Shown here: positions 5,346-36,462 of the stretch, one piece after another | Layout: each line of letters opens with the position of its first letter | Numbering within the stretch: position 1 is the first letter of the stretch | NCBI GenBank assembly: GCA_016196625.1 | Contig: JACPXH010000004.1 | Location: forward strand, 71,993-135,992 | DNA from: Candidatus Parcubacteria bacterium | GTDB taxonomy: Bacteria > Patescibacteriota > Minisyncoccia > JACPXH01 | Direction of reading: 5' to 3' | Length of the DNA stretch: 64,000 bases | The notes under the pieces: model-generated | Told to the model about the DNA's origin: nothing | The model's input: only the letters and a program-made list of their open reading frames with translations | Databases searched by the model: none | Program-made: the position numbers and the translations under genes

Positions 5346-6308
5346 GTGCCACGCAGCCTCCAGAAACTCTTGATTTACCTCAGCCGACTCCTCAAGCAGG
5401 ATGAACTTGTGTTGCTCGATCGCCTAATCCACCAACGCCTGGTAACGCCGGGTGAATTGACGCTCGAGCAAAATCAGTATGGCTACTGGGAGCACCTCGT
5501 TGACCACTGGGAGACGGTCGAGAGCCCGTTCCGTCCGAGTACCGAAGATATTGCTATCTATCGCGAGTTCCTCGCGAAGACCGGAAACGCCGGCCCTGTG
5601 CTTATCTTGGGTTCTACCCCGGAACTTCGAGATCTCACCGCAACCGCCGGCGCAGGCCGGGTGCACCTTGCTGACTTCTCCTACCGGATGCCCCTCGCCA
5701 TGCTTCGGTTCACAAAACACGTTGACCCGCTCGAGGAAATCTGGGTGCGGACCAACTGGCTTAAACTCCCCTTCCCTCCTGAATTCTTTGGCGCTATTCT
5801 CGGAGACCTTGCGCTCCAGCAGCTAACGCCCGAAGCAGAACCTCGCCTCCTTACGAAGATCGCAAAACTACTCAAGCCCGAAGGCGTCTTCATCGCGCGC
5901 TGTCAGGTACTCGACGAAACGGCTCTCGGCGATGATGTCGGCGCGATCGTTGCGCGATTCCGCGACCGTCCGCTGACGGACTGGCAAAGAGTATACTTCA
6001 TCGCCTCGCGGCTCTTGTGGCGCTTCGCCGACCGGGCCAACCGCAGACTCAACCGAACGCTCGCCGCACAAGAACTCACGGCGTGGGCAAACGAAACAGG
6101 AATGACGCAACCACTCCTAGCGAGCATCCACCAAGCCATTATTGAAGACCCGGCCGCGTTCCGGACATGGTCGCCGCCTGAAGAGCGCGCGCTCGTGGCG
6201 CTATTCTCCCGATACTTCACCGTGGTTGAAATGAAGCGCGCGAGCGACTACGAAGGCGCTGCGTGGTGCCCGATATTTCGCCTGCGCGTCAGGCAGAGCC
6301 CTTCGTGA
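5346..6308 (+). CDS. Putative class I SAM methyltransferase-fold protein with a degenerate G-loop
   Basis: VLILGSTPE...VHLADFS...ILGDLAL...LLKPEGVFI resemble MTase motifs I, post-I, II and III. GTG start. Confidence 0.35.
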   Translation: MPRSLQKLLIYLSRLLKQDELVLLDRLIHQRLVTPGELTLEQNQYGYWEHLVDHWETVESPFRPSTEDIAIYREFLAKTGNAGPVLILGSTPELRDLTATAGAGRVHLADFSYRMPLAMLRFTKHVDPLEEIWVRTNWLKLPFPPEFFGAILGDLALQQLTPEAEPRLLTKIAKLLKPEGVFIARCQVLDETALGDDVGAIVARFRDRPLTDWQRVYFIASRLLWRFADRANRRLNRTLAAQELTAWANETGMTQPLLASIHQAIIEDPAAFRTWSPPEERALVALFSRYFTVVEMKRASDYEGAAWCPIFRLRVRQSPS

Positions 6309-32237: not shown

Positions 32238-33431
32238 TTACTTGATCACTTTCGTCACCACGCCTGCACCCACGGTCTTGCCTCCTTCCCGAATCGCAAA
32301 ACGCTGCTTTTCTTCAAGGGCGATGGGGGCGATGAGCTTGACGCTCACGTTCACCGTGTCTCCCGGCATCACCATCTCGGTCCCCTGCGGCAGCGTAACC
32401 TCGCCCGTGACATCGGTCGTCCGGAAGTAAAATTGGGGCTTGTAGCCGGGGAAAAATGGCGTGTGCCGACCACCTTCTTCTTTGGTTAACACGTACACCT
32501 CGGCCTCGAAATCCGTATGCGGCGTCACAGTGCCGGGTTTCGCAATGACTTGGCCACGCTCAACGTCCTCTTTCTTGGTGCCGCGCAAGAGCACGCCGGC
32601 GTTGTCGCCCGCGATGGCTTCATCGAGGGATTTATTGAACATTTCAATGCCGGTTACGACGGTCTTTACGGTCGGCCGAAGCCCCACGATTTCGACTTCT
32701 TCGTTGACCTTGACCGCGCCGCGCTCCACCTTGCCGGTTACAACCGTGCCCCGGCCTTCAATCGAGAAGATGTCTTCGATGGGCATAAGGAAGGGCCTCG
32801 CTGTTTCGCGCTGCGGTTCCGGAATGTACTCATCGAGAGCATTCACCAACTCCATGATCGGTTTTGCCTCGGGACTGTCGGCGCTGGTCGCCTGCAGGGC
32901 CTTGAGCGCCGACCCCCGGATGACCGGGGTCTTATCGCCGTCGTAGTTATACTTCTTGAGGAGCTCACGCACCTCGGCCTCCACGAGATCAATGAGCTCC
33001 GGATCGTCAACTTGATCCACCTTGTTAAGAAAAACCACGATCGACGGCACCCCGACCTGACGAGCCAAAAGAATGTGCTCTCGCGTCTGCGGCATGGGAC
33101 CGTCATAAGCGGAAACCACCAAGATGGCACCGTCCATCTGGGCGGCACCAGTAATCATGTTCTTGATGTAGTCCGCGTGCCCGGGCGCGTCAATGTGGGC
33201 GTAGTGACGTTTGGCGGTTTCGTATTCGACGTGCGCAAGGGCAATGGTGATGCCCCGCGCCTTCTCTTCAGGCGCGGAATCAATTTGATCCACCGATTTA
33301 TCTTGGGCTCGCAAACCAGCACTGCGCAGCACCTTCAAAATAGCGGCGGTCAGTGTGGTCTTGCCGTGGTCAACGTGCCCAATGGTGCCCACGTTGACGT
33401 GCGGTTTGGTTCGTTCAAATTTCTCGGCCAT
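32238..33431 (-). CDS. tuf: Elongation factor Tu
   Basis: GHVDHGKTT...DAPGH...NKVD and full-length homology. Confidence 0.95.
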
Positions 33432-33506
33432 GAAAGAAAATCCTTAAAGGGTTAAGTGGTTTTAAGTGGTCTTTGGCAGACAGCCGTGAGTATTCTAGAA
33501 GAACTC

Positions 33507-33824
33507 TCAACGAGAGTCAAGGGAGCTACGCTCAAACGGCAAATCTTCCAGCTCCAGAGAAACGAGGGGGGCGCTACCTTCTTCTGGCAACTCAACTTTT
33601 GGTTCGCGCTCCCGCTCCCGCCCCTTAAAGACTTCGATGTCGCGGTTGATGCGCTCCCGAAGTTCTTCGTCCGAAAGCTGATCCGAATTCGCCGGGCCTG
33701 GCCTCGCCCCAAAGTATTCCTCAACGGTCGTCAGCACGTACTTCGGCCTCCCGTCTTCAACGATTAGGCACCGCCCGTCCCAACGCTTGAGTAACTCTTT
33801 AAGCGTATTCCAATCCATAAGCAT
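33507..33824 (-). CDS. Small acidic protein with Phd/YefM-antitoxin-like N-terminus, inserted between fusA and tuf
   Basis: CLIVEDGRPKYVLTTVEEYF resembles the Phd/YefM core (xILITRxGkPxaVLmSxEEYe). Sits 6 nt after the fusA stop. Highly charged C-terminal tail. Confidence 0.4.
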   Translation of the reverse strand: MLMDWNTLKELLKRWDGRCLIVEDGRPKYVLTTVEEYFGARPGPANSDQLSDEELRERINRDIEVFKGREREREPKVELPEEGSAPLVSLELEDLPFERSSLDSR

Positions 33825-33830
33825 CCGCCG

Positions 33831-35954
33831 CTACAGCCGGCCGGCGATAATCTCGGCTGCGACATTGGCCGGCACCTCGGCGTAGTAATCGAACTCCATG
33901 GCATACGAAGCCCGGCCCTCGGTCATGGACCGAAGCTTCGTGGAGTAGCCGAACATCTCAGCCAGTGGAACTTTAGCCGAAATCACCTTCACGCTCCCCC
34001 GCTCGCCAATGCCTTCAATGTGAGCGCGCTTCGAATTGAGATCGCCGGTGACGTCACCCATGAACTGTTCAGGTGTTATCGCTTCCACCTTCATCACTGG
34101 TTCTAGCAACACGGGATCTGCGCGCTTGGTTGCGCCCTGGAGCGCAATGGAGCCGGCAATCTTAAAGGCCGCCTCGGATGAGTCCACCTCGTGATACGAC
34201 CCATCGTACAGGGTAATTTGGAGATCTTGCAAGGGGTAACCGGCGAGCACGCCCTTCTCGACGGCCTCGATGACGCCTTTCTCAACCGCGGGGATGAACT
34301 CGTTGGGAATAACACCGCCTCTAATTTTATTGACGAACTCCACACCCTTACCCCGCTCCAAGGGTTCAACCCGGAGCCACACATGCCCGTATTGACCTCG
34401 CCCGCCTGATTGCCGGATATATTTCCCTTCGGCTTCCGCCGCCTTACGGATCGTCTCTTTATAGGCCACTTGGGGCCGGCCCACGTTCGCCGCCACTCCA
34501 AACTCCCGCTTCATCCGATCAACAATAATTTCCAAATGCAACTCCCCCATGCCGGAGATGATAGTATCGTTCGTATCGGGATCAGTCCGCACCCGAAAAG
34601 TCGGGTCTTCCTGAACGAGGCGGCGCAGCGACAAACCCATTTTTTCCTGATCAGCTTTGGTTTTCGGTTCAATTCTGAGCGACATGACCGGTTCTGGGAA
34701 GCTTGGCTTTTCGAGCACTATAGGATGATCCGGGTCGGTCAAGGTGTCGCCCGTGGTCGTATTTTTGAGTCCCACGGCCGCCCCGATACCACCGGCACCA
34801 ATGGACATAACCTCTTCCCGTTCGTTCGCGTGCATGCGCAAGATCCGACCAATCCGCTCTTTATCACCGGTTGAAGCGTTAAGCACATAAGAGCCGCGCT
34901 CAAGTTTCCCTGAGTAAACGCGGAAATAAGTGAGCTGCCCCACGTAGGGATCCGAAGCAATCTTGAAGGCCAAGGCGCTAAAGGGCTCTGTCTCCAGGGC
35001 TCGCCTCGACTCTTCTTGGCCGGTCTTTGGGTTCGTGCCCGTGACCGCGGGGCGCTCTACGGGACTGGGCAAGTAGTCAATAACGCCATCAAGGATGAGC
35101 TGCACGCCTTTGTTTTTTAGCGCCGAGCCGCAAAATACGGGCACGAGTTTAGCGGCGATGGTGGCCCGGCGCAAGCCGGCCCGAAGTTCGTCCACGGCGA
35201 GTGACTTACCTGCCAGATATTTCTCGACCAGCTCGTCGTCTGCGCCCGCGATCTGCTCAATTACGGCCTCCCGCCACCGCTCCATGTCGGCCACGTACTC
35301 GGCCGGTACTTCCTCTTGAACCACACGCTCACCGTGAGCACCCTCAAAGCGCAGTGCTTTACGCCTCAGCAAATCCACCACTCCGCTGAAGCGCTCTTCT
35401 TCGCCCATGGGAATGGTCAGCGCGACCGCATTCGGCGTAAGCCGTTCCCGGATCGAGTTGAAACTTCGCTCAAAAGAAGCACCGGTCCGATCGAGCTTGT
35501 TAATAAAGCAGATGCGCGGGACTGAATACTTATCGGCCTGACGCCAGACGGTCTCGGACTGCGGTTCAACCCCGGCCACACCGTCAAACACCACCACCCC
35601 GCCGTCGAGCACGCGCAGACTGCGCTCGACCTCGACGGTGAAATCCACGTGCCCGGGGGTATCGATGATATTGATGTGATGTTCGTGCTGATCACGAACT
35701 GCGCGCTCATCTTCACCCTCGGCAAGTTGCCACGTTGACGTCCAGAAGCACGTGGTTGCGGCCGCGGTAATGGTAATGCCCCGCTCGCGCTCTTGTTCCA
35801 TCCAGTCCATGATGGCCGCCCCCTCGTGCACCTCGCCAATTTTATGCGAGATGCCGGTGTAAAACAAAATGCGCTCGGTCACCGTGGTCTTGCCGGCGTC
35901 GATGTGGGCGATAATGCCGATGTCGCGAGTTTTTTCGATGGGGTACTCTCGCAT
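33831..35954 (-). CDS. fusA: Elongation factor G
   Basis: Start at internal [24 protein letters not shown]. Full EF-G domain set. Confidence 0.95.
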
Positions 35955-35994
35955 TGAGGAAAATAAAAAAGCCCCGCGCAGCGTGTCGCCCGCC

Positions 35995-36462
35995 CTACCA
36001 CCCAAAGTGGGCGAAGGCGCGATTCGCTTCAGCCATGCGGTGGGTATCGTTTTTCTTCTTGACCGCTGCGCCCTCGTTTTTCGCCGCCAGTTCAATTTCT
36101 TGAGCCAGTTTCTCGACCATGGATCGCCCCTTCTGACTCCGGGCAGCACCAATGAGCCACCGCAGCGCCAGCGCCAGCCGCCGTTCGCCCCGCACCTCGC
36201 GCGGCACCTGATAAGTCGCTCCACCAATGCGCTTCGAGCGCACCTCCACGAGGGGTGAAGCGTTCTCTATGGCGGCCTCGAGTGCCGCGCGAGGCTCGCG
36301 TTTGGTGCTCTGGGCGACCCGCTCTAGCGCGCGATAGACGATGGCCCGAGCCACGGCTTTTTTGCCCCCCCACATGAGGGTGTTGATTAACTTGGTAATC
36401 AGCGTGGAGCCGTACTTCGGATCAAGCAGAATTTCTCGTTTGACGCTCTTGGTGCGGCGCAT
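35995..36462 (-). CDS. rpsG: 30S ribosomal protein S7
   Basis: S7 homology. Confidence 0.9.

Follow-up and report, generated by a model that had tools for sequence, protein, structure and literature searches.

A small protein-coding gene between fusA and tuf

The DNA considered here is a stretch of 64,000 nucleotides (nt) from Candidatus Parcubacteria bacterium (NCBI GenBank assembly GCA_016196625.1, contig JACPXH010000004.1, positions 71,993 to 135,992 of the forward strand; called the window below, to which all coordinates refer), and our subject is a small gene in it, designated X, that lies between the genes for the translation elongation factors EF-G (fusA) and EF-Tu (tuf). Between 29 and 37 kb the minus strand carries, in order, rpsL, rpsG, fusA, X, tuf, rpsJ, rplC, rplD, rplW, and rplB. 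An earlier reading made from the letters and their open reading frames (ORFs), hereafter the sequence-only reading, had placed here an ORF of 105 amino acids (aa) on the operon strand, 6 nt past the fusA stop and 75 nt ahead of tuf. These coordinates were confirmed: the frame runs from an upstream ATG at 33824 (33824..33507, minus), the fusA stop codon TAG occupies 33833-33831, the X stop codon occupies 33509-33507, and the tuf ATG lies at 33431, which leaves an X-tuf spacer of 75 nt. We prefer a second ATG at 33818 (MDWNTLK..., 103 aa), 12 nt from the fusA stop, which is the start in the identical NCBI protein P0001 (recorded as 'hypothetical protein, Candidatus Parcubacteria bacterium') and the one that matches the N-terminus of the family alignment described below. 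The X coding sequence is therefore given as 33507..33818 (minus; 103 aa plus stop), and residues are numbered on this form throughout.

The length of X alone is no proof of a gene, since random ORFs of such length are frequent in the surrounding DNA (57% GC), and one might argue that a GC-rich spacer here happens to hold a spurious open frame, given the many long non-coding ORFs in the region and a window protein that, searched by itself, matches no profile. This explanation is refuted by the comparative data, and we leave it practically no chance. An orthologue with 87% identity (P0002) occupies the same fusA-tuf position in two other assemblies, and comparison of X with the orthologue at a related locus (L001) gave a ratio of nonsynonymous to synonymous substitution rates (dN/dS) of 0.16, with 24 of the 39 differences at third codon positions; in the same comparison dN/dS was 0.08 for fusA and 0.04 for tuf, and synonymous divergence (dS) of the flanking genes was 0.3-0.4. 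Hundreds of homologues, three conserved motifs, and a fixed position argue in the same direction. The sequence-only reading had held that X would be spurious if it had neither a profile match nor conservation in relatives, and what the relatives show instead is this dN/dS and a family that numbers no fewer than 332 protein clusters. X truly encodes a protein and is under purifying selection.

A previously undescribed protein family

How large the family appeared depended on the search: starting from X by itself, a word-indexed search brought up just two close relatives, HMMER run exhaustively over 1.84 billion representatives yielded 40 homologues (E <= 1e-3), of which nearly all measure 86-130 aa and align over their whole length, and a profile search extended the family to at least 332 protein clusters. 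Source names in the list of 332 clusters were all Patescibacteria (Parcubacteria, Falkow-, Buchanan-, Komeilibacteria, and others) or unclassified bacterium, while X-bearing loci found via tuf added Portnoy-, Nealson-, and Uhrbacteria, a few of those metagenome-assembled genomes carrying other automatic labels. The two lineages that we checked, Komeili- and Portnoybacteria, are separate candidate phyla within the NCBI Parcubacteria group. Homologues are conserved at the protein level in AT-rich and GC-rich genomes. Some members have been named Phd/YefM family antitoxin by the NCBI Prokaryotic Genome Annotation Pipeline (PGAP) and by the Joint Genome Institute (JGI). Our literature searches turned up no account of the X family, nor of a gene with a constant place between fusA and tuf in the candidate phyla radiation (CPR). 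The X family is previously undescribed, and its range is confined to the Parcubacteria group within Patescibacteria (CPR).

Architecture of the X protein

Family members are built from three parts, namely an N-terminal core of ~40 residues, an amphipathic helix, and an acidic disordered linker that ends in a conserved tip. Two AlphaFold2 (AF2) models of X, from 42 and 141 sequences, agree with each other and predict the N-terminal domain, a disordered gap, an isolated helix (residues 50-70) unpacked on the domain, and a low-confidence tail.

The N-terminal domain (residues 1-40, GRCLIVEDGRPKYVLTTVEEY; 33699..33818, minus) was delimited by the AF2 models, the profile matches described in the next section, and conservation. 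It is predicted to contain a helix (3-12), two strands (17-21 and 24-29), and a second helix (32-37), with a predicted local distance difference test score (pLDDT) of 82-91, and has the family consensus ..K..L.KKTGDK.II...G.P.YV.M...DYE.L, in which V28 is 90% and Y35 97% conserved. A short variable linker separates it from the amphipathic helix (residues 48-70, LSDEELRERINRDIEVFKGRERE; 33609..33677, minus), which follows the consensus L[TS]E-x-ELL-x-KINRDI-x-x-WK and is better conserved than any other segment of the family (N58 97%, I57 and I61 89%, W/F64 86%, with Phe in the window protein). Residues 50-66 (33621-33671; ELLDKINRDIAxWK) faintly resemble the actin-binding WH2 motif of N-WASP (LLDQIRQGIQLKK) at an E of 1.9, which we judged to be a chance match; profile-versus-PDB sequence searches (alignments A1 and A3) likewise returned chance matches only.

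Beyond the helix lie an acidic disordered linker (residues 71-87) and the tip (88-95, LELEDLPF), together at 33534..33608 (minus) and recognizable by low pLDDT, charge, and conservation of the tip. Linker length after the helix ranges between 23 and 214 residues across the family, and about 30% of the tail consists of aspartate and glutamate. The majority class of tips reads EEDRYYFEPVE (81 of 156 members by strict match, with many near-variants in addition), and the clade of the window protein has IEDLPF, EDIPF, or ENLPI (29/156); hybrid tips such as EEDRHYLEEIPF bridge the YYFEPVE and IEDLPF classes, and E91 within the tip is 91% conserved. An extension of 2-8 residues past the tip is confined to the window protein and its closest kin, comprising here the eight residues ERSSLDSR plus the stop (33507..33533, minus), whose codons hold the -35 element TTGACT of a promoter that faces tuf. 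Residues 48-103 of the window protein carry a net charge of -7 and residues 71-103 of -5, against -8 for the whole protein, which has an isoelectric point (pI) of 4.67; family medians are a pI of 4.3 and a net charge of -14, with -1 for the N-terminal domain. The acidic, charged C-terminal half noted by the sequence-only reading is thus borne out, but it is not featureless, as the two motifs with the highest conservation in the family lie there.

Two further ideas about the tip were rejected. One was that it folds back as a substitute for a missing first strand of the N-terminal domain; the tail was still disordered in the AF2 model from the deeper alignment. The other was mimicry of the C-terminal tip of single-stranded DNA-binding protein (SSB; D-D-D-I/L-P-F), which the acidic tail of the window clade resembles in its L-E-D-L-P-F motif, with close relatives that end in E-D-I-P-F. 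The likeness is superficial: the LPF-type tip occurs in only those 29 of the 156 members, the window protein extends eight residues past the motif, the usual tip of the family is E-E-D-R-Y-Y-F-E-P-V-E, and X has no oligonucleotide/oligosaccharide-binding (OB) fold.

A distantly Phd/YefM-like, truncated N-terminal core

The N-terminus of X had been proposed to follow the Phd/YefM antitoxin pattern, with PF02604 and DUF2281 as the profiles by which to check it. At the family level the first of these held, as PF02604 was the sole recurrent Pfam match, found in 27 of 42 members (E <= 1, best 1.4e-6) and in nine of ten further members (E 4.6e-6 to 0.07), always over profile positions ~11-50 of 74 and with positions 1-10 unmatched. 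DUF2281, in contrast, was dropped, since it was absent from the Pfam matches of the window protein and 52 family members at E up to 1. The cut-off of the NCBIfam model TIGR01552 phd_fam (20.8 bits) was passed by two of ten members (P0021 and P0015, with 22.2 and 20.9 bits), which explains the 'Phd/YefM family antitoxin' naming by PGAP, and the PHROG antitoxin family phrog_2268 matched one member, P0021 (E 1.2e-5). We also aligned the X family by hhalign to a genuine YefM profile, made of YefM orthologues (seeded with Escherichia coli YefM and confirmed by the source names), and obtained a probability of 59% and an E of 9e-5 over 24 columns, which cover the strand-strand-helix core at residues 17-40. 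Judged from these profile comparisons, the X core is Phd/YefM-like at the family level, the relationship being a distant one and the domain truncated.

Where the truncation falls is instructive. In the structure of YefM with DNA, the operator is read by Tyr6-Ser7 and Arg10-Gln11 on beta1/alpha1, which form part of a positive surface, and the protein dimerizes via beta3-beta3' (PMC7544224). X keeps the hairpin and the next helix and is without the first strand and the DNA-reading helix of YefM; ahead of the hairpin the AF2 models have one helix of 10 residues and no first strand. A hidden N-terminal exon of X is impossible, since fusA ends 6-12 nt upstream. Further along the protein, Phd binds Doc via a C-terminal helix at residues 52-73 (PMC9207808), and the X helix at 48-70 has the same position relative to the N-terminal domain; between the X helix and the Phd C-terminus there is no detectable similarity beyond generic amphipathic spacing.

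X shares with Phd/YefM antitoxins a beta-hairpin and helix core with the signature I-I-V-x-x-G-x-P-x-x-V-x-x-x-x-x-E-Y and its place as the first gene of a co-directional pair. The amphipathic helix at ~50-70, putatively of the partner-binding type, and the C-terminal part, predicted to be disordered when alone, would also be consistent with an antitoxin. It departs from them in lacking beta1/alpha1 and the DNA-reading residues, in Pfam scores below the gathering cut-off, in a helix far more conserved than toxin-binding regions usually are, and in the long acidic linker and conserved tip, which antitoxins do not have. The pair itself also differs, in that the downstream gene is tuf and not a toxin gene and that a promoter and a spacer of ~100-300 nt lie within it. 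Nor did we see the patchy, mobile, multi-copy distribution of toxin-antitoxin genes, as every X locus found had the gene in the same position and on the same strand, at one chromosomal site across several candidate phyla. X is thus antitoxin-like in architecture, yet in traits that define a Phd/YefM toxin-antitoxin system (toxin, complete N-domain, and mobility) it does not resemble one, and its profile scores mostly lie under the curated thresholds.

tuf is the only constant neighbor

All 12 family members that we looked up, which span the tip classes and the divergence of the family, lie upstream of tuf on the same strand, with one extra ORF interposed between X and tuf in one of them (L088). 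Of 80 genome loci retrieved via tuf, 11 have X immediately ahead of that gene. A metagenome scan with a tight sub-alignment (A6) added 80 more loci with 72 distinct X sequences, and in these a tuf start follows X within 800 nt in 62 of 63 evaluable cases (median gap 166 nt, range 86-715), whereas a fusA end precedes X within 400 nt in only 28 of 58, the others having fusA farther off (21 loci, up to 3.4 kb) or no fusA in the available upstream sequence (nine loci). The difference is marked (Fisher p 4e-11, for loci that are phylogenetically non-independent). Put in terms of insertions, X and fusA are parted in 30 of 58 loci and X and tuf in one of 63, and since insertions recur on one side and almost never occur on the other, the X-tuf junction is specifically protected. 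What has been inserted on the fusA side is a mixed set of genes, with no recurrent family upstream of X.

The arrangement fusA-X-tuf, whose recurrence in related lineages had been put forward as a check, therefore recurs widely, but the conserved unit is X-tuf and not fusA-X-tuf, with tuf the only constant neighbor. Counting all sources, X precedes tuf here and at over 100 further loci of the Parcubacteria group. Compact fusA-X gaps of 5-12 nt are also found in L001, L003, L009, L035, and L089, and the sandwich in the window is a compact, ancestral-looking form. In a single X locus (L159:2837-6087), over 3 kb of downstream sequence is free of tuf, and X is followed there by a different gene and by inverted repeats rich in GC. 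In the closely related L162-L164, tuf comes 392 nt after X, and L159 may reflect a rearrangement, a mobile insertion, or a mis-assembly.

A conserved neighbor need not be a partner. X might have a role unrelated to EF-Tu, as a hub or adaptor of some other machine or as a regulator controlled by a C-terminal degron, its position being the frozen accident of an ancestral insertion. The order rpsL-rpsG-fusA-tuf-S10 is extremely conserved in all loci seen, unrelated small genes turn up in and near the same slot, and no co-variation signal is found in EF-Tu, all of which such an explanation would lead one to expect. It sits poorly with the specific protection of the X-tuf junction (one of 63 broken, against 30 of 58 for fusA-X), although the promoter at this junction could account for the protection without any protein-protein link. 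On balance we consider a frozen accident unlikely. As to the degron, antitoxins are typically protease-labile, and the C-terminal tip of X could, by analogy, alternatively be one.

The small genes in question are as follows. In L016 (2543-2842), L040 (2530-2817), and L078 (2364-2645), the slot upstream of tuf holds, on the same strand, a different conserved ORF of ~95 aa that is unrelated to X and has the pattern ...EWGL..L..EEQI.MV..I..LIYQAIL.RSL.ILSE.E..E.D.L...D.TTPEDV..FL..KIP.F. Further small ORFs without a Pfam match lie in or close to the S10 operon: one of 117 aa, unannotated, between rpsJ and rplC (L087:5628-5981), one of 138 aa between X and tuf (L088:3911-4327), and two of 39 and 142 aa between tuf and rpsJ of the same locus (L088, listed range 5717-6292). 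The region thus collects lineage-specific small genes, and the position upstream of tuf seems to attract or retain them.

No toxin partner beside X

The sequence-only reading had found no toxin partner adjacent to X, and this holds at every scale considered: no toxin-like ORF adjoins X in the window, no Fic/Doc motif occurs anywhere in its 64 kb, and no cognate toxin gene lies directly downstream of X, that place being taken by tuf in the window, in the 12 looked-up loci, and in 62 of the 63 metagenome loci. PADLOC gave no defence matches.

The one locus that comes near to an exception (L090:525-1538, on a Komeilibacteria-type contig) has a gene for a 337-aa protein with RhuM and Fic domains and the motif HPFSDGNKR between fusA and X-tuf, 1.5 kb upstream of X and followed by a Gly/Pro-rich ORF of 313 aa. 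The motif, with Lys in place of the second Gly, is one that we take to be Doc-type. No second Fic/Doc gene turned up in the ~104 X loci, in the 64-kb window, or in the 80 metagenome loci, and this one is probably a chance insertion, if a noteworthy one given that Doc targets EF-Tu.

That connection raises the question of whether X could be a working antitoxin or immunity protein against a toxin that is encoded elsewhere or injected, e.g., a Fic kinase of the Doc type directed at EF-Tu. The toxin of the Phd system, Doc, shuts down EF-Tu by adding a phosphate to a single conserved Thr (PMC9207808), and the target Thr is present in all 72 EF-Tu sequences with a readable motif. A guard kept next to tuf would be expressed along with the target, X combines a Phd/YefM-like N-terminal domain with a conserved helix at the toxin-binding position, and a Doc-type gene does occur in L090. 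In the Phd-Doc module itself, the antitoxin binds Doc and not EF-Tu. However, ~103 of the ~104 loci have X without any Doc gene; in the remaining one, the distance of 1.5 kb and the gene in between are not a toxin-antitoxin layout. Toxin-antitoxin genes are moreover patchy and mobile and their toxin-binding regions diverge fast, whereas X is vertically fixed at one site and its helix is near-invariant across candidate phyla. With the lack of PADLOC defence matches added, we regard an antitoxin acting in trans as distinctly improbable.

A promoter between X and tuf

The 75-nt spacer between X and tuf (33432..33506, minus) contains the tuf ribosome-binding site TAAGGA at 33441-33446. A promoter scan found a sigma-70-like promoter that faces tuf (TTGACT-17-TAGAAT, 10/12 matches; 33492..33520, minus), with its -35 element inside the last X codons. 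A block of 37 nt around it is identical in L001, against a dS of 0.3-0.4 for the flanking genes. Across the family, 59% of 75 X-tuf spacers have a promoter score of at least 10 of 12, compared with 13% of shuffles, often with an extended -10 (TGnTATAAT), and in the best-scoring spacers the -10 usually ends ~70-135 nt ahead of the tuf ATG. No terminator-like site was seen in the spacer of the window, and Rfam gave no match in or around it. Judging from these elements, tuf very probably possesses a promoter of its own just past X, and X in the window is most likely the last gene of an rpsL-rpsG-fusA-X unit. Co-transcription of X with tuf, which the sequence-only reading had assumed, is for this reason not established.

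The spacer of the window also contains, at 33446-33475 (minus), a tandem 10-nt duplication (ACCACTTAAA ACCACTTAAC), of which the 87%-related L001 has a single copy; this accounts for spacer lengths of 75 nt in the window and 65 nt in L001.

One subclade has a further element in its X-tuf spacers, the 9-mer TGTGGATAA, which is the reverse complement of the DnaA-box consensus TTATCCACA. Eight perfect copies were found against 0.2 expected (L095, L096, L100, L107, L108, L109, L111, and L112), and 25 of the 75 spacers have it with at most one mismatch (the 8 perfect and 17 more), against 4.2 +/- 2.0 in shuffles. Its usual place is 1-45 nt past the X stop and 5-24 nt ahead of the -35, nearly always in one orientation, and in some loci the last X codons form a near-copy directly ahead of it (GTG GAA TAA c TGTAGATAA). 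It is absent from the spacer of the window (33432-33506). The 9-mer may be a DnaA site, an operator for X, or something else.

An operator would fit the possibility that X binds DNA and regulates the tuf promoter, or else the str/S10 region, with a dimer of its N-terminal domain on the operator and the acidic arms as a sensor. Phd/YefM N-domains are operator-binding modules (PMC7544224), genes for regulators often sit beside their targets, and X ends next to a conserved sigma-70-like promoter that faces tuf and even overlaps it in the window, with TGTGGATAA between the X stop and the -35 in one subclade (25 of the 75 spacers have it with at most one mismatch). However, X is without exactly the segment that bears the base-reading residues of YefM, one short helix standing ahead of its hairpin; its N-terminal domain is neutral to acidic (median -1) and not basic, in proteins whose median pI is 4.3; and conservation peaks in the helix and not in the putative DNA-binding part. 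The 9-mer itself is non-palindromic, varies in its spacing to the -35, and is missing from the window. A regulatory role of this kind therefore seems to us rather doubtful.

A candidate EF-Tu-binding protein of putative antitoxin ancestry

We are highly confident that X is a real, conserved, tuf-linked, Phd/YefM-like, and toxin-less gene. We would class it as a Phd/YefM-fold derivative that lacks a toxin, is linked to tuf, and carries novel C-terminal modules. As to what it does, the reading that fits the evidence best, and which we put forward tentatively and short of even confidence, is that X is a domesticated antitoxin-type dimer that binds a conserved partner through its helix and tip, with EF-Tu as the best candidate. 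The sequence-only reading had raised a domesticated regulator or an EF-associated factor as possibilities, and a domesticated, EF-associated role is where our analysis also points, with the same reserve. X would descend from a Phd/YefM-type antitoxin that lost its toxin and was domesticated; it would dimerize via its N-terminal domain, and its disordered arms, each comprising helix and tip, would wrap the partner and fold upon binding, much as antitoxins do. Since helix and tip are conserved across several candidate phyla, the partner itself should be highly conserved, and since tuf is the only constant neighbor, EF-Tu is the best candidate. X might then be a lineage-specific EF-Tu-binding modulator that sequesters, buffers, or protects EF-Tu. 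In architecture only, such a protein could be likened to bL12 and the archaeal-eukaryotic P-stalk, dimeric flexible-arm recruiters of translation GTPases, in that it would have a small dimerization domain, a variable acidic hinge, and a terminal binding element and is encoded among translation-factor genes; X has no sequence or fold relationship to them, and the C-terminal domain of bL12 is globular.

Several observations weigh against this reading. In single-sequence searches the window protein alone has no match in Pfam, NCBIfam, or the PDB, the PF02604 scores of the family (12-27 bits) all fall under the gathering cut-off of 29.8, and two Foldseek fold searches gave nothing significant, so that the putative fold assignment of the core rests on sub-threshold matches; the Phd/YefM character first proposed for the N-terminus is in this sense a property of the family, in truncated form, and not one that the window protein displays by itself. 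The proposed contact between X and EF-Tu has gene neighborhood as its basis, and the str-S10 region is the most frozen bacterial gene order, which makes persistent adjacency weaker evidence of physical interaction here than elsewhere. EF-Tu sequences beside X have no clear X-specific signature, with two weak columns only, and many Patescibacteria have no X upstream of tuf, so EF-Tu does not generally need X. Finally, the promoter between X and tuf means that, unlike in a toxin-antitoxin pair, co-transcription or a fixed stoichiometry is not required.

A stronger version of the EF-Tu-binding reading would make X-tuf a domesticated module resembling a toxin-antitoxin pair, with EF-Tu standing in for the toxin: helix and tip of the X dimer would capture free EF-Tu, and the complex would feed back on the intervening promoter, by analogy with the conditional cooperativity of YefM-YoeB and Phd-Doc. 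We consider this version improbable. If it were true, X would serve ultra-small CPR cells as a buffer or autoregulator of their most abundant translation factor, acting on its level or its activity.

Genes of the X family are now labelled 'hypothetical' or, misleadingly, as antitoxins of toxin-antitoxin systems, and the family deserves its own model and name. Patescibacteria/CPR make up a large and mostly uncultured share of bacterial diversity, with tiny genomes and a reduced, unusual translation machinery, and a small protein under selection beside the EF-Tu gene across several candidate phyla likely matters for running or protecting translation there. X would be a clean case of an antitoxin fold recruited to housekeeping without a toxin, and, if its partner is EF-Tu, it would represent a new class of EF-Tu-binding factor.

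Flanking elongation factor genes

Of the two genes that enclose X, tuf (EF-Tu, 397 aa; 32238..33431, minus) was assigned from the ORF list, synteny, and its place as the constant downstream neighbor of the X family, and fusA (EF-G, 707 aa from MREYP; 33831..35954, minus) from the ORF list, its start being set by comparison with the L001 gene. The mechanically called fusA ORF (33831-36227, minus, 798 aa from TTG) is 91 codons too long and overlaps the end of rpsG; the true start is MREYP at 35954, as in the L001 orthologue.

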